IMG/VR virus record: IMGVR_UViG_3300011335_000494
Coordinates: 1-41,403 of that record
Reading direction: 5' to 3' (one strand)
Source of the DNA: a virus
Taxonomy: Duplodnaviria > Caudoviricetes
Length of the DNA: 41,403 nucleotides
The number at the start of each line of letters is the position of its first letter. The first letter of the stretch is position 1. Made by a program: the position numbers and the translations under genes. Under the pieces are notes generated by a model. That model worked only from the letters and a program-made list of their open reading frames with translations, made no database searches and was not told the origin of the DNA. Of this stretch, positions 1 to 41,403 are shown one piece after another.

Positions 1-145
1 CTAACGCTGTGCGCCAGTTGGTTGCCTCTCCCGCAGCTAGCAGCGTGGGTTCATCCCCGCTGAAATCAAATAGCTCTACCTTGTTGCGCTTCTTTCCTGC
101 CTGTATCACCACTGTAATAACGTGGGTAGTAGTCTCTTCTGTCAT
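1..145 (-). CDS. Hypothetical protein, 5' part (MTEETTTHVITVVIQ...); allele of 39658-39903, cut by the window edge
   Basis: ATG at 145 overlaps the upstream TGA; same reading frame content as the 39658-39903 ORF. Confidence 0.75.
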   Translation of the reverse strand, partial: MTEETTTHVITVVIQAGKKRNKVELFDFSGDEPTLLAAGEATNWRTAL

Positions 146-306
146 CACTCACCCTTCCCTTCTGAATATGTATCGATCATAGATAGTGCATAGGTCATTC
201 TCATTAGGTTCATCCCTGCTTCCTTCTCCGTCTCTTCATCTTGTATCTGTATCAGTGCAAGGTCACGACATAGATCTGCCTTAGCTTGCCAGTATTCTTT
301 ATTCAT
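145..306 (-). CDS. Early hypothetical protein, 53 aa (MNKEYWQAKADLCRDLAL...)
   Basis: Translated by hand; stop/start coupled on both sides; conserved in the second copy (40040-40201). Confidence 0.8.
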   Translation of the reverse strand: MNKEYWQAKADLCRDLALIQIQDEETEKEAGMNLMRMTYALSMIDTYSEGKGE

Positions 307-434
307 TAAGCTACTATCTCCCATCCGCTATTAAGCACCGCTTCCTGCCATTCTCCACAATATTCGCAGACATAATCTGCATTCACTGTAGATAATACGA
401 GTCCTCTTAATCCGCAAAATCTGCACTTATCCAT
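306..434 (-). CDS. Small Zn-finger-like protein, 42 aa (CRFC...CEYC), allele A only
   Basis: Hand translation MDKCRFCGLRGLVLSTVNADYVCEYCGEWQEAVLNSGWEIVA; TAATG coupling. Confidence 0.75.
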   Translation of the reverse strand: MDKCRFCGLRGLVLSTVNADYVCEYCGEWQEAVLNSGWEIVA

Positions 435-538
435 TAACTCTCCCCTTCCATTTCCTCTAGTGTATCGAACTCTTCGCCCAGCTCTTCACTCTCTTCTTCA
501 TAGAATGTAGGGTCATTTAACTCAGGCTCATAACTCAT
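434..538 (-). CDS. Very acidic 34-aa peptide (MSYEPELNDPTFYEEESEELGEEFDTLEEMEGES)
   Basis: TAATG coupling; allele at 40194-40304 keeps the frame. Confidence 0.7.
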   Translation of the reverse strand: MSYEPELNDPTFYEEESEELGEEFDTLEEMEGES

Positions 539-690
539 TAGATTACCTTGCTTCCGTAGCTTAATAACTCTCCCTCTTTGCTGAACTCAGCATCACAATT
601 ACCGCAATAGGTAGCGCCACACTTGCATTCGTGGTCATCAGTATCCATAGAATAAAGCTCAGTGCTATCACACTGCTTACAATTCTTCAT
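538..690 (-). CDS. Cys-rich 50-aa protein (CKQC...CKC...CGNC), allele A only
   Basis: Hand translation; ATGA and TAATG coupling with neighbours. Confidence 0.7.
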   Translation of the reverse strand: MKNCKQCDSTELYSMDTDDHECKCGATYCGNCDAEFSKEGELLSYGSKVI

Positions 691-935
691 TCCTCTTCCC
701 ACCCTTTCGCCATTAACTCTCTGACTTGATCGGTAATCTCATCAGCGCCGCAGCTTTGCCAGTACTCAGCTCTCTCAGCTCTCATAATTGCTTGAGCCCA
801 TAGCTCATCACTCACCACCACCCCTTCATTACTGTCAAATGCTGTCTCAGCAAACTCTTTATCCCAGTACGCCACTAGCAGCTCATCATCAGGACTATAA
901 CTCTCCAGCTGCTTAATCAATTCGCTTACCTTCAT
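687..935 (-). CDS. Hypothetical protein (MKVSELIKQLE... N-terminus), allele A only
   Basis: ORF track; common phage MKVxELIxxL start; coupled to neighbours. Confidence 0.8.
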   Translation of the reverse strand: MKVSELIKQLESYSPDDELLVAYWDKEFAETAFDSNEGVVVSDELWAQAIMRAERAEYWQSCGADEITDQVRELMAKGWEEE

Positions 936-1285
936 TCCTCTTCACCCTTCTCCATAGTTGCATTCTTCTCCAATAGCTGGCTCACTAGCTCAGCTGCTGC
1001 CAGTACGCCAGCTGCGTGAGCTTCTTCCAGTGCCTTGTTACTGTATCGGCTACAAGGGATAACACTTACTCGCGCCATAGTATCTTCAAACTGTCGCCAC
1101 TTCTCCATTACGAAGCTGCCGCTATAGCTTACGCTGCACTCCTTCACCACTGTAACGATAGCTTTACTCCCCTTATAGTGGGATGTATATACCTTCACCC
1201 TTCTCCCATTCTCTAGGTCATAGGTATCGGTAGCCTTGCGGCCTATGAAATCAGTGAACCTCTTGCACTCTGTAGCTGTAATCAT
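932..1285 (-). CDS. Early hypothetical protein, 117 aa
   Basis: ORF track; nearly identical protein at 40304-40654 with mostly synonymous changes. Confidence 0.85.
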   Translation of the reverse strand: MITATECKRFTDFIGRKATDTYDLENGRRVKVYTSHYKGSKAIVTVVKECSVSYSGSFVMEKWRQFEDTMARVSVIPCSRYSNKALEEAHAAGVLAAAELVSQLLEKNATMEKGEEE

Positions 1286-1441
1286 TTACTTCCCCTTCCC
1301 TTCTGTAAAGTAACACTCAGTAATTGAACCCCAGCACCAACCGTCACCAACCCAGTTAATATGCCCTGAAATATAGAATGAAGCTGCAATAAATAGCACA
1401 ATAGCTACTGCTCGCACTCTCTTTCCTCGCTTAGTAATCAT
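1286..1441 (-). CDS. Small membrane protein, 51 aa (MITKRGKRVRAVAIVLFIAASFYISGHINWVGDGWCWGSITECYF...)
   Basis: Basic N-terminus plus hydrophobic segment; allele at 40822-40977 with conservative substitutions. Confidence 0.8.
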   Translation of the reverse strand: MITKRGKRVRAVAIVLFIAASFYISGHINWVGDGWCWGSITECYFTEGKGK

Positions 1442-1795
1442 TTACTCTTCCTCCCTATTCACTGTATCCTGCCAAGTCTTATTGCCCCAATCAGTGTGAG
1501 ATCTGAAGCAGCTGCCGTAGTAGGCCACCTCTCCCAAGTCCTCACAATATACGCCAGTAAGCTCACCTTTGATAGTTACCTTACCGCTTCTAGTAAATAG
1601 TCTGCGTACTGTATAGGTATCGTTCCAAGCTAGGTCAATGGTTAAGCTGTATCCGTTACTTATCGGCAGCGTTACTCCAGTGCTGCGCTTAGTTACTCTC
1701 CCGCCACTTATAGCGAAGAGGTTATTCATTCCAAGCTGACTCAGCAGCTCTTCAGTATTGCAAGGCCTGAACTCTTCTAGCTTCACTGCTTCCAT
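1442..1795 (-). CDS. Conserved phage early hypothetical protein (LSQLG...AISGGRV...DTYTV...VYCEDL)
   Basis: ORF track; motif pattern recurrent in phage early regions; allele at 40978-41331. Confidence 0.85.
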   Translation of the reverse strand: MEAVKLEEFRPCNTEELLSQLGMNNLFAISGGRVTKRSTGVTLPISNGYSLTIDLAWNDTYTVRRLFTRSGKVTIKGELTGVYCEDLGEVAYYGSCFRSHTDWGNKTWQDTVNREEE

Positions 1796-1941
1796 TACGC
1801 TACCGCCTTTGTATAGATACCATAGACAGCGTACAGCTTAGCGATCCGCTTTACTGCAGCAGCTGTCATTACTGCAGCTGCTACCTCTTCGCCTGTCTCA
1901 ATATCTACTAGGCGGATATACTGCTTCTCTCTCCCTGCCAT
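1795..1941 (-). CDS. Hypothetical protein, 48 aa (MAGREKQYIRLVDIETGEEV...)
   Basis: Start moved to ATG 1941, which follows the SD-like GGAAGGGG; the upstream part of the ORF-track frame is the structured element. Confidence 0.75.
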   Translation of the reverse strand: MAGREKQYIRLVDIETGEEVAAAVMTAAAVKRIAKLYAVYGIYTKAVA

Positions 1942-2028
1942 TCTTTTACCCCTTCCAAGGTAGGTTATCCTAGTGCTTAGCTCTAGGCCACTGCCTACGG
2001 TATAGCTACCGTAGGCAATAGTCAAGCT
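1942..2028 (-). promoter_or_regulatory. Repeated structured intergenic element, copy 1
   Basis: AGCTTGACTA-[TTGCCTACGGTA gcta TACCGTAGGCAG]-TGGCCTAGAGCTAAGCACTAGGAT...ACCTTGGAAGGGGTAAAAGA-ATG. Confidence 0.7.
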
Positions 2029-2391
2029 CTAAGCTACCTCACGCGCTAAGCGTGGCGCATTCTCTCCCAGCTCTTCAGTGTCTGAAATATCAAACACATA
2101 GCGCCAGCTGAAGCGCAGCTTCTCTTCCCCTTCCTCATTCATATACTTACCGACAGGGACAAGGATAGCTGCGCCAGTGCTTCCCTTCTTTACGCTTCTT
2201 CCTGCGCTCTTCCAATCGTGGAAGCCAGCGCACTTTGTAGCTGTAGGCTTCTGCCATAGGATAAGCAGACTATTCCTCACGCTGAAATCTTCTAGCAGCG
2301 TTACTGGCGCGATAGTCCCGCGCTCTTCCATAATCTCCACTGCGTCCGATAGTGAGCGGATAAAGCTGGCCTTCTCTTCTTTGCTTCTCAT
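2029..2391 (-). CDS. ArdC-like N-terminal ssDNA-binding domain protein (DUF1738 type), candidate anti-restriction
   Basis: Motifs FSVRNSLLILWQKPTAT, GFHDWKSAGRSVKKG and VFDISDT match the ArdC-N pattern; no metalloprotease domain. Confidence 0.8.
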   Translation of the reverse strand: MRSKEEKASFIRSLSDAVEIMEERGTIAPVTLLEDFSVRNSLLILWQKPTATKCAGFHDWKSAGRSVKKGSTGAAILVPVGKYMNEEGEEKLRFSWRYVFDISDTEELGENAPRLAREVA

Positions 2392-2395
2392 AGTA

Positions 2396-2680
2396 TTACT
2401 CTCCCGCCAGCTCTAGCACTGCCCAGCTGCTGCCAGCGTTCAAGCGTTCAAGCTCAGCTATATCCTGCTCGCGTGTAGTGCTGGCGCTAATTGTGGAGAT
2501 ATCGCGTAGGCATTCTGCATTCATATCAGCGAAGCGGCCAGCTGGGAGATTGAGGACATTCTGTAGGCCGCGTGTATTAGCCTTCACCTTGCTATTGAAG
2601 CTCTTCCCAGCGTAAGAGAATGGGAAGATTACCCATTTAATAGCTGCTGTCTCTCCCTTTACTTCTAGTGCTGTAGTCAT
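2396..2680 (-). CDS. Early hypothetical protein, 94 aa
   Basis: ORF track; GGAAGGGG SD upstream. Confidence 0.8.
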   Translation of the reverse strand: MTTALEVKGETAAIKWVIFPFSYAGKSFNSKVKANTRGLQNVLNLPAGRFADMNAECLRDISTISASTTREQDIAELERLNAGSSWAVLELAGE

Positions 2681-2762
2681 TCTTTACCCCTTCCAAGGTT
2701 TAAGATCCTAGGCTAGCCCTAGGCCAGCGGCCAGCTCTTACGAGCTGGCAGCTAGTCAAGCT
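2681..2762 (-). promoter_or_regulatory. Repeated structured intergenic element, copy 2
   Basis: AGCTTGACTA-[GCTGCCAGCTC gtaa GAGCTGGCCGC]-TGGCCTAGGGCTAGCCTAGGAT...ACCTTGGAAGGGGTAAAGA-ATG. Confidence 0.7.
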
Positions 2763-2933
2763 CTAGCTTAGTGCTGCGATATCTGCTGCGTCTAGGTTAG
2801 TATCAAAGCTTGTCCCGCAATTAGGGCAGCTTATGACAGCTAAGAAGCTGCTGCCATAAGGCTCTAGCCATATGCTGGCGGCTAAGCTGTCGCAATCGCC
2901 GCAGATAGCTCTATGCTTCGCAATCGTGGCCAT
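2763..2933 (-). CDS. Small Zn-ribbon protein (CGDC...CPNC), 56 aa
   Basis: Two CxxC pairs; ATG 2933 chosen. Confidence 0.7.
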   Translation of the reverse strand: MATIAKHRAICGDCDSLAASIWLEPYGSSFLAVISCPNCGTSFDTNLDAADIAALS

Positions 2934-3027
2934 AGAAGAACTCTCCCGCTTCCTCTTCATTCAATAGATTAAATACGCGGCCACACTCTACGCAGCGGCT
3001 GCGTGTCTGCAGATTGAAAGTCTCCAT
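2911..3027 (-). CDS. First early gene, 38 aa (METFNLQTRSRCVECGRVFNLLNEEEAGEFFYGHDCEA), CxxC...HxC
   Basis: Hand translation; AAGGAAGG SD; lies directly downstream of the early promoter. Confidence 0.75.
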   Translation of the reverse strand: METFNLQTRSRCVECGRVFNLLNEEEAGEFFYGHDCEA

Positions 3028-3043
3028 TTACTTACCTTCCTTC

Positions 3044-3442
3044 AGCTGAGCTCTTCAGCTGATACCCTTAAAGTACGCTACCGTAATAAGCGTGTCAAGC
3101 TATAAGCTGCTAATTATGGTTACGATATTATAACGATTAGCTGGGAATTAGCTGGGAAGATCCTAGCTCTAGAAGCTGACAGCTGCGCCAGCTGGCCAGC
3201 TGCTAAGAAGCTGTAAAGCTGGGAGAAGCTGCGGGAAGCTGCGAGCTGATAGCTGGCCGCGAGCTTGAAGAGCTGCGAGCTGGCCGCGAGGATAGACAGC
3301 GGAAGCTGGCAGCTGTAGGCATTTATTAAATACAGCTGAGAGAATATATAGGGGAAGGGGTAGCCGCAGCTGTAGGCATCCCTGCGGGATATCCTAACCG
3401 TACTGGCAGCAGCGGCAGCAGCGCAGCTCAGCAGCGCAGCTG
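3044..3442. repeat. Non-coding AGCT(G) short-repeat array
   Basis: 27 AGCT in ~400 bp by hand count, 22 of them AGCTG on the plus strand. Confidence 0.9.
3070..3098 (-). promoter_or_regulatory. Housekeeping-sigma early promoter
   Basis: Minus strand TTGACA-17 nt-TACTTT, about 40 nt upstream of the first early ATG. Confidence 0.8.
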
Positions 3443-3525
3443 CTGCGGTTACGAGCAGGAGACCCCTAGGTGTTAAGTTTAGTGCGTGTGTAGTGTATGT
3501 ACCCTCTACAGATATATTTCCTAAA

Positions 3526-3585
3526 GTGAACCAGATCACTCATCAATGTCCTATTTTGTACCGATTTAATAGTGACGTTAGTCAC
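3526..3585. promoter_or_regulatory. Two GTGA-N6-TCAC palindromes (CRP/GlxR-type boxes)
   Basis: GTGAaccagaTCAC at 3526-3539 and GTGAcgttagTCAC at 3572-3585. Confidence 0.5.
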
Positions 3586-3838
3586 ATTATTAAAATACTT
3601 TATACCATAGGCAGGAAATGACTTTTTATTCCTGCCTTATATACAGTAGGGGCGGTAATTGTGATAGCCCCGTACAGTCTCGCTACGGTTACCCTACGCG
3701 AGTCCCTAGGACGAGCACTGACTTACCCCTCGCTACGCTGTAGCTTGCTCGGGAGTTACCGTAACCGCTTGTCGTGCCAAGCACGACTTTTAATCGGGTG
3801 TAGTCTACCTATAACCCAATGAGATTGTAGGAGACCCA

Positions 3839-5698
3839 ATGGCTGAGAACTCAGCAGATATAGCAAAGCGAATCATCTTAGGATGTGTAGCTGAGGGTAT
3901 GACCATTGAACAAGCCTGCCTATCGGCTGGCAAGTCTATGAAGACATACGAGTACTACCGACGTACTGACAAGATCTTCTGCGACAAGATTGACCGAACC
4001 CGCCTAGGACTAAAGGACAAGCAGTTCGCCGCAGGTGATGTCCACGACATCTCATTTGCCGAGTTCCGTGAACGCTTCCTTAACTCTAAGACCTTCCCAC
4101 ACCAGCAAAACCTAGTGGATATGATCGAAGGCAAAGAACCTTCCTGGCTACATCCTTCGATGAAGTTTGAGCAGGGTCTGGCTAACAACCGTATCCTTAT
4201 TAACATCCCGCCCAACCACGCCAAGTCCATCACGGTCACCGTAGACTATGTAACTTGGCAGGTTGCCCGTAATCCTAACTTTCGTGTGCTGATTGTCTCT
4301 CAGACTCAGCAACTAGCCGCCGACTTTCTCTACGCCATCAAGCAGCGTTTGACTCACCCAATGTATGAGAACCTTCAAAATGCTTATGCTGCTGGCGTAG
4401 GGTTTAACTCTAAGTCTGCCTCGTGGCAGGCTACCCGTATCACCTTCGGTGATGAACTACGTGAGTCATCTGAGAAGGACCCGAATATCGAAGCCGTTGG
4501 TATCAACGGTCAGATCTACGGTAAGCGTGCCGATATGATTATCGTAGACGATGCTGTAACCTTAAAGAACGCCAATGAGTTTGAACGCCAGATCAAGTGG
4601 TTGACACAGGACGTACGTTCTCGTCTAAACCCTACTGGCAAGTTGATTATCATTGGAACCCGTGTGGCAGCCGTAGACCTCTATCGAGAACTACGTAACC
4701 CAGACCGCTATCCAGGTGGCTTAGTCCCTTGGAAGTATCTAGCGATGCCAGCCCTGCTGGAAACAGATGAAGACCCTGATAAGTGGGTTACCCTGTGGCC
4801 AGCATCCGATGCTCCATTCGATGGGCAAGAAGAATCAGATCTTAATGAGGATGGACTATACCCACGTTGGAATGGTCGTAACCTCTACAACGAACGTCAA
4901 GCGATGGATGCATCTACTTGGGCGCTGGTCTACCAGCAACAAGATATTTCAGATGATGCTATCTTTGATCCAGTATGTGTGAGAGGTTCTATTGATGGAA
5001 TGCGTAAAGCAGGCAGGTTGGTTCCTGGCCACCCTGGTCATCCACGCGATACGAACGGCTTTAGTTTTATTTGTGGTCTTGATCCCGCTATGGTTGGTGA
5101 TACAGCCGCCGTTTGTTACGCTGTTGATAGGGTTAGCCATAAACGCTATATCGTTGACGCTATTAAAATTACTCGCCCAACGCCTGCTCAGATCCGTCAG
5201 TTAATATTTGACTGGACTAGCCTCTATAGTCCTAGTGAATGGATTGTAGAGAAGAATGCTTTTCAGTCGTTTCTTACGCAAGATGAGGGCATCCGTGCCA
5301 ACCTTGCATCCAGAGGCGTGTTACTGCGAGAGCATCACACGGGTAACAACAAGTGGGACTCAGGTTTCGGTGTTGCGTCTATGTCAACATTGTTTGGCAC
5401 CAAGCAACACGATGGAAAGCACCACCGCGATAATTTAATTCATATGCCTAGTGACCAAACGGAAAACATTAAGGCAATGATTGAACAGCTCATTACTTGG
5501 TCACCTACAACTAAGGGTAAGACCGATATGGTAATGGCTCTGTGGTTCTGTGAGATCCGCGCACGTGAGATGCTCAATCAAGGTATCCACGCTACGCACC
5601 ATATGAAAAATCCTTTCCTGTCTCGTTACGAACAGGGTAAGAGAACAGTCATTAACATTGATGAACTGCTCGCAGAACAAGAACGTACATTCATCTAA
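3839..5698 (+). CDS. terL: Terminase large subunit with an N-terminal HTH-like extension
   Basis: Walker A-like INIPPNHAKS, Walker B IIVDD, nuclease motifs GLDPA/EKNAFQ/DMVMALW; first gene of the morphogenesis operon. Confidence 0.93.
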   Translation: MAENSADIAKRIILGCVAEGMTIEQACLSAGKSMKTYEYYRRTDKIFCDKIDRTRLGLKDKQFAAGDVHDISFAEFRERFLNSKTFPHQQNLVDMIEGKEPSWLHPSMKFEQGLANNRILINIPPNHAKSITVTVDYVTWQVARNPNFRVLIVSQTQQLAADFLYAIKQRLTHPMYENLQNAYAAGVGFNSKSASWQATRITFGDELRESSEKDPNIEAVGINGQIYGKRADMIIVDDAVTLKNANEFERQIKWLTQDVRSRLNPTGKLIIIGTRVAAVDLYRELRNPDRYPGGLVPWKYLAMPALLETDEDPDKWVTLWPASDAPFDGQEESDLNEDGLYPRWNGRNLYNERQAMDASTWALVYQQQDISDDAIFDPVCVRGSIDGMRKAGRLVPGHPGHPRDTNGFSFICGLDPAMVGDTAAVCYAVDRVSHKRYIVDAIKITRPTPAQIRQLIFDWTSLYSPSEWIVEKNAFQSFLTQDEGIRANLASRGVLLREHHTGNNKWDSGFGVASMSTLFGTKQHDGKHHRDNLIHMPSDQTENIKAMIEQLITWSPTTKGKTDMVMALWFCEIRAREMLNQGIHATHHMKNPFLSRYEQGKRTVINIDELLAEQERTFI

Positions 5699-17395: not shown

Positions 17396-18580
17396 ATGGC
17401 TATCCCAACAGGTACCCCTACCACCACGTCTAGCATCAGCGCACTCGTAACTGCAGCATACGATCAGTATGTAAGAATGGCACTTCGTTCCATTCCAGTT
17501 ATGCGTTCACTAGCTGATGTTAAGCCAGTGCAACAGGCAATGCCAGGATCATCAGTTGTTTTCTCAATCTACTCAGATTTGGCACAAGCTACTTCTACAT
17601 TGAGCGAAGCATCAGATGTTTCAAGCATTGCACTAGGTAACCCATCACAGGTTACAGTAACACTGAACGAATACGGTTCAGCAGTTACAACAACAAAGAA
17701 GTTAAACCTAACTTCATTCAACGATGTTGATTCAGCTCTTGCTGACATCATCGCATACAACGCAGCAGATTCTATTGACAACGTTGTAGGTCAGGTCCTC
17801 TCAGCAGGAACTAACGTGATCTACTCAAACGGTCCTTCAGGTTCTGCACCAACATCATCTGCAGGTGTTCTACCTGTAGATACAATGACAGTTGCAGATA
17901 TCCGCAACGCTGTAGTATCACTTCGCACAAACAAGGCATTGCCTCGTATGGGCGAACTATACGCTGCATACCTACACCCACGTCAGTCAGCCGATCTTCG
18001 CGCTGAAACTGGTACAGGTGGATTCCAGGAGCTAACAAAGTACGTTGAGCGTACACCGTTCGTTGCTGGTGCAGTAGGCGTTATCGAAGGTGCATTCATC
18101 GTTGAGACACCACGTGTCCTAAACGGTGCTGTACAGTCAAACGGCCTTATCTCAACAACAGTTGGTACAGCAATCACTAACGTTGCAGCTGACGGAACAA
18201 ACGCAACAATCACAACATCAACCGCACACGGTATTGGTGTTGGACAGGTTGTTACAATCGCTTCATCTAACGCGTTGTTCAACGGAACCTTCACAACCAT
18301 CTCTGGTACAACAGGTTCAACAATCAAGTACGCTCTTGCTCAGACAGTTTCATCTGTTGCAGCAACAGGTACAGTTACATTCACCAATAACTACCGCGCA
18401 ATCGTCGCTGGTCGTGAAGCATTGGCTGAAGCACAGGCAGCAGACATCTCAACCGTTATCGGTCCAGAGATTGATGCGCTACGTCGTTTCCGCACAATTG
18501 GTTGGTACTACTTCGGAGGCTTTGCTCGCCTTCGTGAAGCTGCTCTCTATCGCATTGAGTCAGCAGCAACAAACGGATAA
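17396..18580 (+). CDS. Major capsid protein (N4-gp56-like HK97 fold) with an inserted beta-rich domain
   Basis: Motifs TLNEYG, YAAYLHP, VIGPEIDALRRFRTIGWY; strongly biased codon use; follows scaffold. Confidence 0.9.
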   Translation: MAIPTGTPTTTSSISALVTAAYDQYVRMALRSIPVMRSLADVKPVQQAMPGSSVVFSIYSDLAQATSTLSEASDVSSIALGNPSQVTVTLNEYGSAVTTTKKLNLTSFNDVDSALADIIAYNAADSIDNVVGQVLSAGTNVIYSNGPSGSAPTSSAGVLPVDTMTVADIRNAVVSLRTNKALPRMGELYAAYLHPRQSADLRAETGTGGFQELTKYVERTPFVAGAVGVIEGAFIVETPRVLNGAVQSNGLISTTVGTAITNVAADGTNATITTSTAHGIGVGQVVTIASSNALFNGTFTTISGTTGSTIKYALAQTVSSVAATGTVTFTNNYRAIVAGREALAEAQAADISTVIGPEIDALRRFRTIGWYYFGGFARLREAALYRIESAATNG

Positions 18581-20604: not shown

Positions 20605-20942
20605 GTGCTAAATACAACTTGGTTTGCGACCAAGCAACTACATTTAATTTTCAGTTCCAGATTCTCAACGACAATACTCCTTGGAATCTAACGAACTATG
20701 ATGTTGTAATGACAGTACGACCATTCGTTGGTGCGTCTACTACAACTGTAGTGGCAACCAATGACAATGGGCGTATCGTTGTTGATGGACCTAATGGTCG
20801 CATTACAGTAACTATTGATGCAGTAACTACTGGCAACATTGCAGCAGGTCGTTACTCATATGATTTAGTAGTAGATTCAGGTAGCGTAATCACACGCATA
20901 CTTGAAGGTAAATTTGTGGTGACAGGAGCCGTAACAATATGA
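20601..20942 (+). CDS. Fibre-attachment/adaptor beta-sandwich protein (BppU-N-like)
   Basis: Pattern Q.TTF...PWNLTNY...YSYDL...RILEGKFVV; precedes the collagen fibre. Confidence 0.6.
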
Positions 20943-22558
20943 CAACTGTAATCGTTATTGAAAATATCACACCACAAGTAGCGGTAGAATTCTCACAGGA
21001 CCAAGGCCCACAAGGATCTCCAGGTAATACTGGACCAACAGGACCTACTGGTCCTGCGGGAGCAACTGGACCAACAGGTGCTACAGGTGTACAAGGTGTC
21101 ACTGGTGCCACTGGTCCGACGGGAGTAACAGGTGATGTGGGAATTACTGGACCGATTGGCGCGACGGGTGCCACGGGTCCTATTGGAGCCACGGGTAACA
21201 CAGGACCTACAGGTGTTACGGGCGCAACGGGAGTTACAGGTCCGATTGGACCTCAAGGAGTTACAGGAAGCATCGGACCGACTGGACCAGTTGGTGCCAC
21301 GGGTTCCGTAGGTGTTACTGGAGTTACTGGCCCTATTGGTGCCACTGGTAATGTTGGGCCTACTGGTCCTATTGGAGCAACTGGAAGCACTGGACCTATT
21401 GGAGCAACAGGACCTATCGGTCCTACAGGACCAATAGGAGCAACTGGTCCTACAGGTGCAGCAAGCACTGTTCCAGGTCCTACGGGCGCTACAGGCCCTA
21501 CTGGACCTACTGGAGCAGATGGTCAGTCAGCTAGTTATTATGATTATTTAGCCAATACAACAGCAACAAGTGGTGATCCTGGCAATGGATATTTATTATG
21601 GAACAACGCAACTCAGACCTCAGCAACTAGTATTACTATTGACCATATCAACGCTGACAATGTAGACATAGATGTATTCCTAACGCTTCTTTCTGTTGGC
21701 GATGTTCTTATTATTCAAGATAAAACCAATTCTGCTAATTTCCAAAAGTGGGAAGTTTCAGGAACAATTACTATTGTAGCTAATAACTACGTTACAGCTC
21801 CAGTAACATTGGTATCTTCTGGTGGAACTGGAACAACAGGTTTTGCTAACAATGCAACAATTATTCTTGCTATCGTTAGTGCAGGTGTTGTTGGACCTAC
21901 AGGTCCAATCGGTGCTACAGGTCCTACAGGATCTACTGGTCCAGCAGGAGCCACTGGTCCTATCGGTGCTACTGGTCCCACAGGACCACAAGGTGTAACA
22001 GGTGATCTTGGTCCAGCAGGAGCAACTGGTCCTGCGGGTGCTACTGGTCCTATCGGTGCAACAGGTGCAACAGGACCTGCTGGTACAAATGGAACAGTTG
22101 GTGTAACAGGTGCCACAGGTCCAGCAGGAACAGCAGGCGCTGTTGGCGCTACAGGTCCAGTAGGTGCCACTGGTCCAATAGGTGCCACAGGACCTGCTGG
22201 TGCTACAGGACCACAGGGTGTAACTGGTTCGACTGGTCCGTCTGGTGATCCAGGACTGGTCATTAACTCTCAGACAGTTTCATATACGTTGGTTCTAACC
22301 GATGCAAGCAAGTTGGTTGAAATTAACTCAGCATCTGCAAACAATTTAACAGTCCCATTGAACTCAACAGTAGCCTATCCAGTAGGTACTCAGATCAGCC
22401 TTCTTCAAGTAGGTGCAGGTCAGATGACTGTAGTAGCAACTGGTGGTGTAACAATCAACGCTACCCCTGGTTTGAAACTACGTGCTCAATGGTCTTCTGC
22501 GACACTCATTAAACGCGCAACTGATACTTGGGTACTGGTTGGAGATCTTTCAGCGTAA
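20939..22558 (+). CDS. Collagen-like fibre protein
   Basis: Two long G-X-Y tracts (GPT/GAT/GPI), a central globular domain and a C-terminal ...WVLVGDLSA domain. Confidence 0.9.
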
Positions 22559-22567
22559 GATTCTCCT

Positions 22568-23629
22568 ATGAGATTCCACGTTATCAGTCTGCCTCACACG
22601 CAGACAACCAAAGATTATGTCAACTGCGCCTATACAGAAAAGGTACGCCGATTTTGTATAATGATGAAAGGGTTAGGCCATACGGTCTACCTTTATGCTG
22701 GTGAGGAAAATGAAGCTCCTTGTGATGAGTTAATTACTTGCATCACAAATGAGCAACGAGAAGAAGCATTAGATGGCAAGCACTACACAGAAGCTGCCTT
22801 TGATTCTAACCTTCCGCATTGGCAGATCTTCAATGGCAATGCTATCAAAGAACTTGAGAAGCGTTTAGAGAAGAAAGACTTTATTTGTGTTATTGGTGGT
22901 GCCTCACAAAAATCAATCGCTGATGCATATCCAGCACACATAACAGTAGAGTTTGGTGTTGGTTACGGTGGAATCTTTAGTCCATACAAAGTCTTTGAAT
23001 CATACGCTTGGATGCATAGCATCTATGCAATGTTCAAGAATCCAACAATGGTAGATGGTAACTTCTACGATGCTGTAATTCCAGGATACTTAGAACCTGA
23101 GATGTTCCCATTGCAGGAAAAGAAAGAAGATTATTACCTCTACGTAGGACGTATGGTAGATCGTAAAGGTCTAGTCATTGCTCAGCACGTATGTAAGGAA
23201 CTAGGACTCAAGCTCATTATGGCTGGTCCTGGTAAAGATCCAAAGATCGAATATGGCGAATGGGTAGGACCAGTTGGTCCTGAAGAACGAGCGAAGTTAA
23301 TGGGCGGTGCTATCGCTCTCTTTGCTCCAACACTATATATAGAACCTTTCGGTAATGTTGTTATCGAAGCACAGACCTGTGGAACTCCAACGATTACCAC
23401 AGACTGGGGAGCATTTACAGAGACTAATCCACAAGGTATTACTGGATACCGTTGCAGAAATGCAATGGAGTTTGCAGTAGCTACAGAGTGGGTTAAGGAC
23501 TTGGACCCAGTAGCAATACATAAGCGAGCAGTATCTCTTTATTCACTAGATGCTATCGCACCACAGTATGAACAATACTTTGCACGACTGCTAACTCTAT
23601 GGGGAGATGGCTGGTATGAGAGGAAATAA
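22568..23629 (+). CDS. GT-B glycosyltransferase (GT4/Glycos_transf_1 type)
   Basis: YVGRMVDRKG and EPFGNVVIEAQTCGTPTI signature. Confidence 0.9.
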   Translation: MRFHVISLPHTQTTKDYVNCAYTEKVRRFCIMMKGLGHTVYLYAGEENEAPCDELITCITNEQREEALDGKHYTEAAFDSNLPHWQIFNGNAIKELEKRLEKKDFICVIGGASQKSIADAYPAHITVEFGVGYGGIFSPYKVFESYAWMHSIYAMFKNPTMVDGNFYDAVIPGYLEPEMFPLQEKKEDYYLYVGRMVDRKGLVIAQHVCKELGLKLIMAGPGKDPKIEYGEWVGPVGPEERAKLMGGAIALFAPTLYIEPFGNVVIEAQTCGTPTITTDWGAFTETNPQGITGYRCRNAMEFAVATEWVKDLDPVAIHKRAVSLYSLDAIAPQYEQYFARLLTLWGDGWYERK

Positions 23630-33855: not shown

Positions 33856-34125
33856 ATGCGGGAACCGCACGAGTTTGAGGTTCCTTTATGTGCTCAAGTA
33901 GGTGGCGATCTATTCTTTCCTGACAAGGAAAACGAAGGCAAGATGGTTCGTCTTAGTATCGCATCAGCAAAATCAATCTGTCGTAGCTGCCAGCACATCA
34001 CTGAGTGTGCTGAGTGGGGAATCCGTAAAGAACGCCACGGTATTTGGGGTGGACTTACAGATGGTGACAGACGCAAAATTCGCAAACAACGACGTATAAC
34101 TTTGGAAGAGGATAAGAGTGCTTAA
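33856..34125 (+). CDS. whiB: WhiB-family Fe-S transcription factor
   Basis: C...DLFFP...AKSICRSC...EC...GIWGG plus basic tail. Confidence 0.95.
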   Translation: MREPHEFEVPLCAQVGGDLFFPDKENEGKMVRLSIASAKSICRSCQHITECAEWGIRKERHGIWGGLTDGDRRKIRKQRRITLEEDKSA

Positions 34126-37437: not shown

Positions 37438-37661
37438 CACACAATGAATTACTAGAAAAAGCACAGAGCGAAAGCGCAGATAGAGGTGGCGCAAGTATTG
37501 CCGCGCTTATTGCAGTAGTAAAATTGCATAAGGTTTTATTGGTAAAAGATTATGAGAACGATACTGACTGGTACGAATGTCAGGAATGTACGCGTGGGAT
37601 TAGTCCAAGTATTGCCTACCCTTGTCCAACTATTCAGGCTATTGAGAAGGAGTTGGGATGA
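37434..37661 (+). CDS. MTHxELL...CPTIQAIEKEL protein, copy 2
   Basis: Paralogue of 32053-32295. Confidence 0.75.
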   Translation: MTHNELLEKAQSESADRGGASIAALIAVVKLHKVLLVKDYENDTDWYECQECTRGISPSIAYPCPTIQAIEKELG

Positions 37662-38041
37662 AAGAGTTAGATCTATTCTTATTCCTAATGGACAGTAAGT
37701 ACCCTGACCTACAAAAGTCAGAGGGTATCTACGACTCCTTCGATTGCATTAGCCGTGACTCTGGTGCATACATAGAGTTGAAGTGTCGCAACACTCACTA
37801 TCCCACGTTACTGATTGAAGAGATGAAGTACCGCAAGTTGATTACCCAGGCAGCAGAGCGAGATCTCACCCCGTTCTACATTAACTCGACTCCAGAAGGG
37901 GTCTTTTCTTTTGACCTAATGGAAGTAGCAGAACCAGAATGGTTTAGTCATTGGATGCCAGCTACTACTGAGTTCTCACGTTCTAACAAGGTCAGTAAGT
38001 TAGTAGGTTATCTACCTATCGAAGAGGCGGTGAAGCTCTGA
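37658..38041 (+). CDS. PD-(D/E)XK-like nuclease
   Basis: FDC...YIELKCR...LLIE..KY. Confidence 0.65.
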   Translation: MKELDLFLFLMDSKYPDLQKSEGIYDSFDCISRDSGAYIELKCRNTHYPTLLIEEMKYRKLITQAAERDLTPFYINSTPEGVFSFDLMEVAEPEWFSHWMPATTEFSRSNKVSKLVGYLPIEEAVKL

Positions 38042-38262: not shown

Positions 38263-38293
38263 AAGCTCTAGTCTTTAATGGCTAGGGCTTTTT
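38263..38293 (+). terminator. Intrinsic terminator, plus strand
   Basis: AAGCTCTAGTC/GGCTAGGGCTT stem followed by a T-run. Confidence 0.75.
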
Positions 38294-38302
38294 GTCTTTG
38301 GC

Positions 38303-38345
38303 AAACAAAGAACCCCACTGCGGAAGGGTGCAGTAGGGTTCTTTG
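38303..38345 (-). terminator. Terminator-like hairpin ending the early operon
   Basis: CAAAGAACCCTACTGC/GCAGTGGGGTTCTTTG stem followed by TTTG, at the convergence point. Confidence 0.65.
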
Positions 38346-38376: not shown

Positions 38377-38853
38377 TCATAAAGGTTTCATAATAACTAT
38401 TGCTGATGGGAATGGCGCTGAGTTTTTTTGATCTCCAAACTTAAGCCGTCCCTTAATGAAACGTATGTCGTGGTGTATAACACTGTCCCACCACCATTGG
38501 GTGTCAGTACGTGAGGGTACCAAGCAGACGACTGTTGTACCTGCTTTACTTTCCTCATTAGCTTTAGCCATAAATGATTTAATCGCTCTTCCGTACGGTG
38601 GATTAAGCCACACGGTTCCACCGTTACTATCGTCATACCAGTTGCGAGTGAGCGCATCTTGACGTGACGACTCAGGATGATCTGGTCCGTACCAGTTACT
38701 CGGTACCAAAGTGGATACCTGCAAAGCGGCAGCGTCCAATACAAAATGAAACTCCCTGTCAAGTGCATCGAAAGTATCTCGTGGAGTTGTCCAACTATCT
38801 TGCTTGGAACTTTTGAGTCCGTCATTAAACATCCCTGCCACTATCAATACCAT
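38377..38853 (-). CDS. Phage DNA N6-adenine methyltransferase (Dam-like, PF05869 type); alternative start ATG 38832
   Basis: WTTP..F..LD.EF.F.LDAAA, WLNPPYG, LVPSRTDTQWW, GRLKF, APFPS. Confidence 0.9.
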   Translation of the reverse strand: MVLIVAGMFNDGLKSSKQDSWTTPRDTFDALDREFHFVLDAAALQVSTLVPSNWYGPDHPESSRQDALTRNWYDDSNGGTVWLNPPYGRAIKSFMAKANEESKAGTTVVCLVPSRTDTQWWWDSVIHHDIRFIKGRLKFGDQKNSAPFPSAIVIMKPL

Positions 38854-39272
38854 CCTCTTCTGTCGCTATGTTTGAGAGCGCGACACGCAGATTTTCCGTA
38901 GCGGTGTTCAATGTATCGTAAACCGTGAAGGACTTGTAGTTCAGGTTCTCTACTACGTTCTCCAAGGAGTTGAGCAATTCCGTAAGCTGACGAAGTTGGT
39001 TTGCCCTTAGAGTTCTTTGGGCTAGCAAGGTGGTCGAACCTGGACTCACGGGTCCAAAGTCTGACGAGACACTTGACCTGTTGTGTGCTGTAGCCAAGTG
39101 CTCGTGCGTAACTAATTGTAAGTGCCTTGTTCTCACGCTTCTCCTCCATTGTTGCCTTGGTCTGTATCGGTTTGGGTAAGGGTAATTCCCCTAGCCTTTG
39201 CACGTGCAATAGTACGAGGGCTAGCAGTAGAGCCGTTAAGATCAATCCACGTCTTGCCTTCTTGTTCATCAC
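38844..39272 (-). CDS. Membrane-anchored lytic transglycosylase (SLT-like)
   Basis: N-terminal TM; CL..LWTRES, SSAYGIAQ, GLRYIEHRYG, GWY. Confidence 0.85.
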   Translation of the reverse strand: MMNKKARRGLILTALLLALVLLHVQRLGELPLPKPIQTKATMEEKRENKALTISYARALGYSTQQVKCLVRLWTRESRFDHLASPKNSKGKPTSSAYGIAQLLGERSREPELQVLHGLRYIEHRYGKSACRALKHSDRRGWY

Positions 39273-39417
39273 TCACCTTCTCCTTCTCCAGCAATTCTTT
39301 GTAGTCCTCTGGGTGTAGGTGAGAGAGCTTGATTAACGCCCTGTCCCTAGCTCTTCGATAGTTACGGTAATAGACAGCTGCCTTTGCAGCACTGGCCAAT
39401 CTCTTCTCATCACTCAT
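39133..39417 (-). CDS. Hypothetical protein (RNYRRARDRAL..L...H)
   Basis: ORF track; ATGA coupling; 3' end overlaps the transglycosylase gene. Confidence 0.7.
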   Translation of the reverse strand: MSDEKRLASAAKAAVYYRNYRRARDRALIKLSHLHPEDYKELLEKEKVSDEQEGKTWIDLNGSTASPRTIARAKARGITLTQTDTDQGNNGGEA

Positions 39418-39665
39418 ACGCCTACCGCCAGTGCAGCAAAGATAACCTTGGTAATATCCAAAGGCTGACCTACCAAGTGAGCATCCTCTTCATCACTATC
39501 CCAGCCTGAGACTAGAACTCTGCAGTTGATAGGGCTTCTGCGTAGATATTCAATAGCTTCATTGGAACTATTGCCACCCCAGATCGCCACTCCCTTCTCA
39601 TCTACTACTTCATATAGGTTGATTAGATTAGACTGGCGTGGGTGGAATGCAATGACATCACTCAT
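39414..39665 (-). CDS. Hypothetical protein, 83 aa
   Basis: ORF track; coupled. Confidence 0.75.
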   Translation of the reverse strand: MSDVIAFHPRQSNLINLYEVVDEKGVAIWGGNSSNEAIEYLRRSPINCRVLVSGWDSDEEDAHLVGQPLDITKVIFAALAVGV

Positions 39666-39903
39666 TCTCCCCCTGCCCTTCTACTATATTTTTAACCTCA
39701 TCATTTATAGTTTTCTCAGGTAACTCTGAGGATAGTGAGATCTTTGAGAGAGCTTCGCCTAACGCTGTGCGCCAGTTGGTTGCCTCTCCCGCAGCTAGCA
39801 GCGTGGGTTCATCCCCGCTGAAATCAAATAGCTCTACCTTGTTGCGCTTCTTTCCTGCCTGTATCACCACTGTAATAACGTGGGTTGTTGTCTCTTCGCT
39901 CAC
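39658..39903 (-). CDS. Hypothetical protein, 81 aa
   Basis: ORF track; GGAAGG SD before GTG. Confidence 0.75.
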   Translation of the reverse strand: MSEETTTHVITVVIQAGKKRNKVELFDFSGDEPTLLAAGEATNWRTALGEALSKISLSSELPEKTINDEVKNIVEGQGENE

Positions 39904-40040
39904 TTACCTTCCCCCTTTGGGCAATCGTCATATGGATTTTCATTACCTTCATTATCTTCGCATAGGCAGAAGCTGAAATGCTCTACCTGCGTGGCGTGGG
40001 TTAGCTCAGCTAACTCTGACCAGCTTAGATCTACGCTCAT
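39900..40040 (-). CDS. 46-aa protein, allele B only (MSVDLSWSELAELTHATQVEHFSFCLCED...PYDDCP)
   Basis: Hand translation; TGATG and GTGA coupling. Confidence 0.75.
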   Translation of the reverse strand: MSVDLSWSELAELTHATQVEHFSFCLCEDNEGNENPYDDCPKGEGK

Positions 40041-40201
40041 CACTCACCCTTCCCTTCTGAATATGTATCGATCATAGATAGTGCATAGGTCATTCTCATT
40101 AGGTTCATCCCTGCTTCCTTCTCCGTCTCTTCATCCTGTATCTGTATCAGTGCAAGGTCACGACATAGATCGGCCTTAGCCTTCCAGTATTCTTTATTCA
40201 T
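40040..40201 (-). CDS. Allele of 145-306
   Basis: Near-identical sequence. Confidence 0.8.
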   Translation of the reverse strand: MNKEYWKAKADLCRDLALIQIQDEETEKEAGMNLMRMTYALSMIDTYSEGKGE

Positions 40202-40304
40202 TACTCTCCCCTTCCATTTCCTCTAGTGTATCGAACTCTTCACCCAACTCTTCACCCTCTTCTTCATAGAATGTAGGGTCATTTAACTCAGGTTCGTATC
40301 CCAT
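40194..40304 (-). CDS. Acidic peptide, allele of 434-538
   Basis: MGYEPELNDPTFYEEEGEELGEEFDTLEEMEGESNE. Confidence 0.7.
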   Translation of the reverse strand: MGYEPELNDPTFYEEEGEELGEEFDTLEEMEGESNE

Positions 40305-40654
40305 TACTCTTCACCCTTCTCCATAGTTGCATTCTTCTCCAATAGCTGGCTCACTAGCTCAGCTGCTGCCAGTACGCCAGCTGCGTGAGCTTCTTCCAGT
40401 GCCTTGTTACTGTATCGGCTGCAAGGAATAACACTTACTCGCGCCATAGTATCTTCAAACTGTCGCCACTTCTCCATTACGAAGCTGCCGCTATAGCTTA
40501 CGCTGCATTCTTTCACCACTGTAACGATAGCCTTGCTGCCCTTATAGTGAGAGGTATATACCTTCACCCTTCTCCCATTCTCTAGGTCATAGGTATCTAC
40601 TGCCTTGCGGCCTATGAAATCAGTGAACCTCTTGCACTCTGTAGCTGTAATCAT
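40304..40654 (-). CDS. Allele of 932-1285
   Basis: ORF track. Confidence 0.85.
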   Translation of the reverse strand: MITATECKRFTDFIGRKAVDTYDLENGRRVKVYTSHYKGSKAIVTVVKECSVSYSGSFVMEKWRQFEDTMARVSVIPCSRYSNKALEEAHAAGVLAAAELVSQLLEKNATMEKGEE

Positions 40655-40822
40655 TTACTTCCCTTCCTCTTCCTCGTTGATAGTTTCCTCGTATCGCTCT
40701 AATTCTATAAGCTGTAATGCTCTCTCCAGTAGGAAGATACTGTCTCGCACTTCCTTCTCTGTCGGGTTAGTAGTTAGGTTATGCGCCACAATATCCATTA
40801 AGTGAGCTGATGTCTGCGCCAT
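40655..40822 (-). CDS. 55-aa protein, allele B only (MAQTSAHLMDIVAHNL...)
   Basis: ATG 40822 coupled by TAATG. Confidence 0.75.
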   Translation of the reverse strand: MAQTSAHLMDIVAHNLTTNPTEKEVRDSIFLLERALQLIELERYEETINEEEEGK

Positions 40823-40977
40823 TACTTCCCCTGCCCTTCTGGGAAATAGCACTCTGAGATCGTCCCCCAGCACCATCCATCCCCCATCCAGTTAATATGC
40901 CCTGATAGATAGAATGCAGCTGCCATCAGTAATGCAATCGCTACTGCTCGCACTCTCTTTCCTCGCTTAGTAATCAT
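40822..40977 (-). CDS. Membrane protein, allele of 1286-1441
   Basis: Hand translation. Confidence 0.8.
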   Translation of the reverse strand: MITKRGKRVRAVAIALLMAAAFYLSGHINWMGDGWCWGTISECYFPEGQGK

Positions 40978-41331
40978 TTACTCTTCCTTCCCATTCACTG
41001 TATCCTGCCAAACCTTATTACCCCAATCAGTATGAGATCGGAAGCAGCTGCCATAGTAGGCCACCTCTCCCAAGTCCTCACAATATACGCCAGTAAGCTC
41101 GCCTTTGATAGTTACCTTACCGCTTCTAGTAAATAGTCTGCGTACTGTATAGGTATCACTCCAAGCAAGATCAATAGTTAAGCTGTATCCGTTACTTATC
41201 GGCAGCGTTACTCCAGTGCTGCGCTTAGTTACTCTCCCGCCACTTATGGCGAAGAGGTTATTTATTCCAAGCTGCGACAGCAGCTCTTCAGTATTGCAAG
41301 GCCTGAACTCTTCTAGCTTCACTGCTTCCAT
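40978..41331 (-). CDS. Allele of 1442-1795
   Basis: ORF track. Confidence 0.85.
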   Translation of the reverse strand: MEAVKLEEFRPCNTEELLSQLGINNLFAISGGRVTKRSTGVTLPISNGYSLTIDLAWSDTYTVRRLFTRSGKVTIKGELTGVYCEDLGEVAYYGSCFRSHTDWGNKVWQDTVNGKEE

Positions 41332-41403
41332 TACGCTACCGCCTTTGTATAGATACCATAGACAGCGTACAGCTTAGCGATCCGCTTTACTGCAGCAGCT
41401 GTC

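Follow-up and report, generated by a model that had tools for sequence, protein, structure and literature searches.

Loss of four-base words and gain of AGCT in the inferred leading arm of a virus distantly related to cluster BF Streptomyces phages

The virus record IMGVR_UViG_3300011335_000494 (Duplodnaviria; Caudoviricetes), analysed here as a single stretch of 41,403 nucleotides that we refer to as the window, carries a non-coding array of the tetranucleotide AGCT upstream of a block of small leftward genes, and the same word is densely written into the codons of those genes. The locus thereby raises the question of why one four-base word should be so frequent in coding and non-coding DNA alike. 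The original prediction, made from the letters of the window, offered four options: a methylated self mark, a decoy or sponge for a defence protein, a loading or stop signal, and safe filler left after the purging of other sites. As set out below, the loss of other words is a stronger signal than the gain of AGCT, and we favour, with moderate confidence, an explanation in which restriction-type selection on the first-entering arm purges words while AGCT is a tolerated filler amplified by reuse.

The AGCT excess in array and codons

3044..3442, no strand: non-coding AGCT array of 27 copies, partly short local duplications, with the early promoter on one side and the inferred genome end on the other
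145..3027, minus strand: early operon of 12 small open reading frames (ORFs), whose synonymous codons bear the AGCT excess

On recount, the previously claimed numbers are all exact: AGCT occurs 27 times in 3044-3442, 22 of these being oriented as AGCTG and 10 as CAGCT, and 62 times in 1-3000, with two copies in the terminase large subunit gene (terL) and five in the portal gene. Base composition predicts 1.5 copies in the array and 10.9 in 1-3040, and dinucleotide shuffles (1000 each) gave a mean of 9.9 and a maximum of 17 for the array and a mean of 38.6 and a maximum of 53 for 1-3000, both maxima below the observed counts. The proposed core spacing of 7-11 bp holds for 15 of 17 intervals, the remaining two being 15 and 26 bp.

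The excess also persists under the kind of codon-shuffled control that had been suggested for it. In 11 early ORFs (2523 nt) 51 copies are found, whereas 16.9 are expected with fixed amino acids and late-gene codons, 22.0 with the codon order shuffled and 28.7 with the genes' own codons permuted, and none of the 2000 draws per model got to 51, which rules out amino-acid or codon bias as the cause. Early genes use 50% of their dipeptide opportunities for AGCT and late genes 8%. In the late genes the word is depleted 2-fold (64 observed vs 133 expected), and in the five distal early ORFs it is not in excess (9 vs 8).

An assembly artefact is likewise ruled out. The array is supported by one contig of run X1 that covers 2800-4300 and by two contigs of run X2 with zero differences, both of which runs may be the window's own source, and a variant of the array is contained in run X7; a related strain shows a 12-bp indel at 3221. 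A structured single strand was considered as an explanation for the array and set aside; the array folds at a z of -2.7, though a stable centroid is lacking.

Purged words are the stronger signal

1461..3460, no strand: strongly purged zone, nine 4-mers at or below 0.15 of their late-arm frequency on both strands, AGCT about 10-fold over
1..1460, no strand: tail of the gradient, in which avoided words reach about 0.3-0.6 of the expected level and AGCT is enriched about 4.6-fold (the latter pooled with 39140-39758)
2029..2391, minus strand: stand-alone ArdC N-terminal domain (ArdC-N) gene, candidate early counter-defence
38263..38334, no strand: terminator-like hairpins (consensus matches only) at the junction of the early and rightward arms, some 5 kb inward of the inferred end

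The words purged from 1461-3460 are AAAA, AAAC, AACA, AACT, ACCA, ACGT, CAAC, CATC and GACC. By the same threshold, 15 of 17 late windows have no purged word, one has a single word and one has two. The purged words are missing from the early segment and present elsewhere in the genome, and the non-palindromic ones are depleted on both strands, including in the untranscribed array region. Because both strands are affected, an RNA-level target of the avoidance can be ruled out. The leading 2.2 kb also contain the fewest distinct 5-mers of any window in six out of six genomes.

The loss is graded. For the set of words avoided in AGCT-type loci, which was derived from those loci with the window included, 250-bp bins contain 1-7 of 33 expected occurrences over 1751-3500 and 11-21 deeper in, and the relaxation begins shortly inward of the ArdC-N gene. 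In all four types of early module described below, the purge starts at the inferred end, persists for 2-2.5 kb and then weakens until word frequencies are back at about 0.8-1.1 at 5 kb; this fade-out point is the junction of the early and rightward arms with its terminator-like hairpins. The gradient of the filler mirrors that of the purge in the AGCT-type and GGCC/GATC-type modules.

The phenomenon extends to more distant lineages. Among 21 loci with more than 2.5 kb upstream and 80-87% terminase identity, for which the end position was assumed and the window's late arm served as reference, 15 purge three or more words, and the nine words of the window all fall inside the 33-word pool purged in these relatives, of 116 eligible (p = 5e-6). 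Up to 13 four-base words are purged per lineage. Across 28 leading regions the purge count correlates with the top enrichment (rho 0.65, the lineages not being independent), and the top word is palindromic in 15 of them (AGCT in 7 and GATC in 4, distant lineages included), compared with 1 of 17 late windows. The same test gave zero purged 4-mers in T7, Marinomonas phage CB5A, Immanuel3 and WRightOn.

Four exchangeable early modules among close relatives

3839..5698, plus strand: terminase large subunit gene, anchor of the comparison and clear of the purge, its product 42-43% identical to terminases of cluster BF Streptomyces phages

A terminase scan (best 80 of 599 loci) and a motif scan (48 stretches) together gave, after removal of duplicates, 43 distinct close loci including the window; six were too short and were dropped, and the 37 with at least 1.5 kb upstream were typed. 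Eleven carry an AGCT module (type A), 15 a GGCC/GATC module (type G), four a weak GGTCGG/GATC module (type T), and seven are arrayless (type N). Where known, terminase identity among the close relatives is 95-98%, and five longer records have 82-86% nucleotide identity to the window outside the early arm. Relatives had been proposed as a check on whether the motif at this locus is kept or swapped, and both outcomes occur.

The vocabulary of a module reaches into its genes. Early genes contain AGCT at 17-25 per kb in type A and GATC at 9-17 per kb in type G, and one and the same orthologue is written with AGCT in an A background but with GATC in a G or T background. The orthologues of the gene at 687-935, which have 72-81% identity to the window's protein, contain 6.6 AGCT and 1.2 GATC in type A, compared with 1.3 and 3.7 in type T. 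In distal shared genes the effect of the background is weak or nil. The lost words are likewise type-specific, as seen in the first 2.2 kb of the loci of sufficient length (10 A, 14 G, 4 T and 7 N). Type A is without ACGT (0.7 vs 8.4), CATC (2.3 vs 26), CAAA and AAAA; type G without TCAG, CAGC and CAGT (0.4-0.9 vs 18-26), CAAA and GAAC; type T without GAAG (0.8 vs 26), ATAT and ACGT; and type N without ATAT, with GATC and ACGT more weakly lost. GAAC, GATC, GGCC and CAG, which belong to the phosphorothioate motifs, are among the words purged.

These differences bear on the idea that a local mutational process, in the form of context-dependent editing plus slippage, accounts for losses and filler alike in the absence of selection. 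Duplications and indels are indeed visible in the array, the most depleted trinucleotide in type A is AAC and the most enriched AGC, and A>G changes at avoided words are slightly above background (0.33 vs 0.25). We nevertheless regard this explanation as improbable. When avoided words are compared with their sister-strain counterparts, differences are found at all positions and in all substitution classes, near background, and a single editing or deamination process is therefore not supported. Moreover, both strands are depleted, AACA is lost yet AGCA is not raised, the lost words differ between lineages, and near-zero counts are reached in coding DNA with the frames intact.

Avoidance and the origin of the AGCT excess

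With amino acids fixed and only depleted words penalised, the AGCT count expected in the 12 ORFs rises from 17 to 21, 30, 32 and 38 at four thresholds, compared with 52 seen, and hard avoidance in the same early genes gives 22-53. Rewarding AGCT alone, on the other hand, leaves most depletions unexplained, and ACGT, AAAA, AAAC and CAAC are not removed. A maximum-entropy model places AGCT at rank 1-2 of 77-115 free words as a gainer in type A and at rank 50-73 in type G. Avoidance alone thus yields about half of the AGCT excess, and the remainder must come from local duplication or from a direct benefit. The unpredicted residue is about 1.4-1.7-fold in the genes and about 2-4-fold when the entire first 2.2 kb are taken together. 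Short duplications are visible inside the array, and the residue may reflect reuse: a word that is present and safe could repeat at no cost, and its palindromic core would halve the number of distinct flanking words. The low count of distinct 5-mers in the leading 2.2 kb is compatible with, but not specific to, such reuse. A general preference for RRYY or RGCY words was rejected, since type A shows no rise in AGCC/GGCT or in other RRYY words. Of the four options offered originally, safe filler is the one that the purge and the avoidance models favour.

In the mechanism that we propose, the arm of 2.5-5 kb, stripped of lineage-specific four-base words on both strands, would enter the cell first, where sequence-specific host defences would cut it before the early genes could protect the remainder. 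The agents would be diverse restriction-type enzymes that recognise short sites, and a gene in the first 2 kb, possibly the ArdC-N gene, would lift the pressure. AGCT is likely a tolerated filler that accumulates as other words go, and the remaining excess might come from reuse and local duplication of a safe palindrome, by which few new longer words would be added.

A number of points weigh against this mechanism. First, non-palindromic 4-mers, which are numerous among the purged words, are unusual for classical type II enzymes, and a literature search found no papers with such non-palindromic 4-mer motifs. Next, the models fall short in several respects: maximum-entropy avoidance predicts a 1.8-3.8-fold AGCT gain over the first 2.2 kb where 7.6-fold is seen; it predicts a gain of GCGC equal to that of AGCT where just 1.7-fold is seen; all four NAGCT words are enriched 8-15-fold, whereas words with AGCA or AGCC stay close to their usual level or under it, which looks like a preference for AGCT itself; and in type G the model places GATC only at rank 2-14 and GGCC at rank 27-56. 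The avoidance model is also partly circular, because the depleted words were chosen from the same data. Finally, the presumed hosts appear poor in defences, as all actinobacterial drafts shown in the passage around Table 2 of one survey list zero methylated motifs and zero methyltransferases, the genomes being incomplete (PMC6329791), and streamlined genomes are said, in a passage of another, to have fewer defence systems (PMC12143481). According to a further passage, lake populations frequently lose restriction-modification (R-M) genes by deletion, so that drafts of this kind could fail to show them (PMC9426551). The modified motifs BAAAA, ACAAA, CAAAT and GATGG, given in part of a study of marine prokaryotes, resemble avoided 5-mers of type A but stem from other organisms (PMC8919816).

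The residue left over by the avoidance models, together with the specificity of the enrichment for NAGCT, raises the possibility that the purge is real but that AGCT, and GATC or GGCC in the sister modules, is also selected itself, in that dense palindromic sites on the first-entering DNA would recruit a host or virion protein, or a modifying enzyme, which shields that DNA or labels it as self. Among type A strains AGCT has the third-highest retention of 133 words (0.78, compared with 0.61 overall), AGCT and GATC recur as top words in the leading regions of distant lineages, and both are known methylated motifs of aquatic prokaryotes, reported in the passages concerned from archaea and not from actinobacteria (PMC6329791, PMC8919816). 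High retention is also expected, however, where single changes from AGCT make avoided words, and in type G the retention of GATC and GGCC is nothing special (ranks 31 and 50 of 130). Dipeptide opportunities for AGCT are hardly raised (12.2 early vs 11.0 late per 100 codons), seven of the 37 close relatives are arrayless, and no methyltransferase tracks the filler. Direct selection thus appears possible but rather unlikely.

A bolder version of the same ideas, which we would put forward only as a speculation that is doubtful as a whole, is that streamlined freshwater actinobacteria possess undescribed, variable defences that read four-base, often non-palindromic words, perhaps with no methyl mark, and that their phages rewrite the entire first-entering arm in a small vocabulary of their own. 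This vocabulary would be based on a single palindrome, to which a protective protein would also bind, and complete dialect modules would be exchanged, like host-range cassettes, between phages that are otherwise similar.

The inferred genome end and the early promoter

3461..3499, plus strand: conserved end motif, homologous to the right ends of four cluster BF phages, at the inferred genome end
3070..3098, minus strand: candidate host-type early promoter TTGACA-17-TACTTT, called by eye, inward-facing

Exact terminal repeats are present in the cluster BF phages Immanuel3 (275 bp) and WRightOn (264 bp), and a motif that starts 40 bases from the BF right end is found by pattern in three of four BF genomes and by alignment in all four. 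It matches the window at 3461, and the physical right ends of the four genomes align to 3499, which by homology suggests a genome end at about 3499. The AGCT array would then probably lie partly within a terminal repeat. In run X2 the depth steps from 64 to 84 near 3207-3236, but a strain branch falls at the same place, and the step was disregarded in mapping the repeat.

The promoter candidate recurs as the same TTGACA-17-TACTTT arrangement in seven of 11 AGCT-type loci, scanned over a 190-nt slot. A consensus promoter scan over 2900-3900 returned zero promoters; it missed this arrangement because the -10 element fits TANNNT, a recognised -10 consensus, but only three of the six positions of TATAAT. 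Given an end at about 3499 and a promoter at 3098-3070, the array sits between the two, in agreement with the original claim that it lies at the genome end upstream of the early promoter. By analogy with T7, where an inward host-type promoter likewise precedes small early genes, the array-bearing end would be the one to enter the cell first.

The end motif is common to the BF Streptomyces phages and the window's freshwater clade. The BF terminal repeats (L081 45820-46094 and the right ends of L125, L126 and L127) are of low complexity, with CACA, CATATG-like and TGTCC words. In the window, the first 170 bases inside the inferred end contain, at 3386-3466, a scaffold of conserved blocks consisting of an AT-rich block, a G-run and a GTACGGTAC-like word, spanned by an imperfect 31-bp inverted repeat. 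The blocks are common to all four module types, and the sequence between them follows each type's own vocabulary.

The position of the array next to the inferred end, and the similarly low complexity (CACA, CATATG-like) of the BF repeats, would suit a packaging, end-maturation or replication signal of the kind of the T7 heptamer repeats or P1 pac, to which the coding gradient would be secondary. We consider this improbable as well: unrelated arrays, or none, are found at 95-98% terminase identity, the conserved end motif lies outside the array, and both the purge and the coding excess would be left unexplained. A loading or stop signal, as had been suggested at first, is disfavoured because seven of the 37 close relatives are without the array. 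The suggestion that the array is a decoy or sponge for an AGCT-reading defence protein draws on the density of AGCT at the inferred leading end and on its 2-fold depletion in late genes, as if the word were read there; a cutting enzyme would, however, destroy such DNA, and late-arm AGCT is similarly low in relatives without an AGCT array, so that we hold this to be very improbable.

Genes of the early arm

38377..39758, minus strand: distal early arm, reached across the contig join, with conserved small genes and a largely faded purge
38844-39272, minus strand: transglycosylase-like gene of the distal early arm
38377-38853, minus strand: PF05869 methyltransferase gene of the distal early arm

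The ArdC-like gene named in the original prediction is real (PF08401, 24.5 bits against a cut-off of 22.6); it has a weak match to the anti-restriction family phrog_7245 and 35 homologues. It is present in all 11 AGCT-type loci and in none of the 26 loci of the three other module types. Two early proteins searched in the ESM Atlas matched unnamed clusters only.

Among loci that reach the region, the PF05869 gene is found in four of eight A, one of six N, none of 12 G and none of four T loci, and is thus confined to the GATC-poor A and N types. A self mark set by a phage methyltransferase is therefore not supported, the gene being present in just half of the AGCT-type loci that reach it and also in an arrayless one, and a phage-encoded AGCT methylase was rejected as no methyltransferase co-segregates with the filler. 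A C5 methyltransferase gene occurs at the end of the early arm in four of four T loci and one of six N loci (L004, L018, L022, L097 and L100). Types T and N are both without GGCC in the leading region.

Genome layout, kinship and likely host

The record represents a virus of 41.4 kb with the terminase gene at 3839, a capsid protein gene at 17396 and a WhiB gene at 33856, and the small leftward genes of the block at 145-3027 run on across the contig join to 38377. Positions 39759-41403 are a second version of parts of 1-1867, 92-98% identical and with different gene content and insertions; the AGCT copies in this region are for this reason not independent. Alternative joints of the region occur as short contigs at lower depth in runs X1 and X3, and it is therefore most likely a second, co-occurring strain stitched on by the assembler.

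The best named matches of terL are those of cluster BF Streptomyces phages, at 42-43% identity over 97-99% of the length, and the window shares with them, besides the terminase similarity, gene order and layout; the phage of the window is, as judged from its genes, a distant relative of these podophages. The cluster BF phages (Beephvirinae) are podoviruses with short direct terminal repeats of 253-275 bp (PMC9753666). Most runs that contain the window or its relatives are metagenomes from rivers, lakes and estuaries, and an actinobacterial host is suggested by WhiB and the BF kinship. A search with WhiB homologues did not yield a host name. A Chitinophaga-related host was rejected, the GTDB scan having returned two short contigs in Chitinophaga-related metagenome-assembled genomes that were judged likely mis-binned.

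Other genes encode a collagen-like Gly-X-Y protein and, next after it, a family 1 glycosyltransferase (20939-23629), a proteasome-subunit-like protein (PF00227, 31089-31646) and a protein with a nucleotide-modification-associated domain (PF07659, 36411-36812). In addition, CATG and CCGG are absent from the entire record, where about 159 and 106 copies are expected; the five closer records (G001-G005) contain no CATG and 0-1 CCGG, and most relatives at 80-87% terminase identity are without CATG yet retain CCGG. This absence is a genome-wide pressure separate from the early purge. The region 37658-38041 encodes a 127-aa protein, conserved at 83-96% in five relatives and PD-(D/E)XK nuclease-like by eye, with no match in Pfam or PHROG and no useful one in the PDB; it is a candidate agent behind the genome-wide absence of the two words.

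Comparison with known systems

Both the T7 terminal heptamer repeats and the GATC cluster at P1 pac are clusters of a short motif beside a genome end, as in the window. They are, however, invariant signals found in non-coding DNA alone, whereas close relatives of the window carry a different motif or none, and the window's own motif reaches into codons. A methylation-dependent end signal of the P1 pac type does not fit, given that the motif is not conserved with the terminase and that half of the relevant type A loci carry no PF05869 gene. The first 2 kb of T7 are mildly rich in TAAA, CCTA and AAAG.

With the cluster BF podoviruses the window shares the terminase-first order, the leftward small genes at the right end, the end motif and probably a low-complexity repeat (PMC9753666), whereas Immanuel3 and WRightOn have neither a 4-mer purge nor an AGCT excess at the corresponding end. 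The leading regions of conjugative plasmids are also first-entering DNA with a composition of their own and are rich in anti-defence genes, but a passage of the study concerned describes no systematic depletion of R-M targets in them, while in the window depletion is near total for several words (PMC13478746).

The closest parallels appear to be phages in which R-M sites matter in the early-injected DNA. According to a passage on T5 and BF23, such sites are tolerated outside the first-step-transfer region, the protection being ascribed to early genes, and in the window, too, the avoided words are tolerated beyond the early segment; the 9.7-kb repeat of T5, with its hard stop, contrasts with the short inferred repeat and graded fade over 2.5-5 kb of the window (PMC10644984). 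In the T7-like Murciavirus, as partly described, loss of the site for the type I R-M enzyme Mme2I matters only in the early-injected end, and the two share an early region that is the most variable part between close phages, a host-type promoter (a candidate in the window) and a short podovirus-like genome. Murciavirus, however, has one 13-bp bipartite site, a known enzyme and escape mutants, as compared with up to 13 four-base words and a palindromic filler in the window's lineage (PMC12455610). By its depletion pattern alone, the window's arm would belong to this class and would work like the early-injected regions of Murciavirus and T5.

No paper on a multi-word purge with a swappable palindromic filler was found in a literature search of incomplete coverage that did not extend to supplements. 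Site avoidance in first-entering DNA has previously been shown, in the passages cited, for single enzymes (PMC10644984, PMC12455610), whereas here a graded rewrite of 2.5-5 kb reaches down to codon choice and exists in four alternative versions among close relatives. If the proposed explanation is true, the purged words would list the defence specificities of hosts in an abundant, mostly uncultured lake lineage that is reported to be defence-poor, and the gradient would be a ruler for the length of DNA exposed before counter-defence acts. The case also advises caution, since a conspicuous excess of one motif at the end of a phage genome can reflect the removal of other words. Set beside the single-enzyme cases of T5 and Murciavirus, the pattern in the window is real and is best read as an extreme, multi-word variant of early-region site avoidance.

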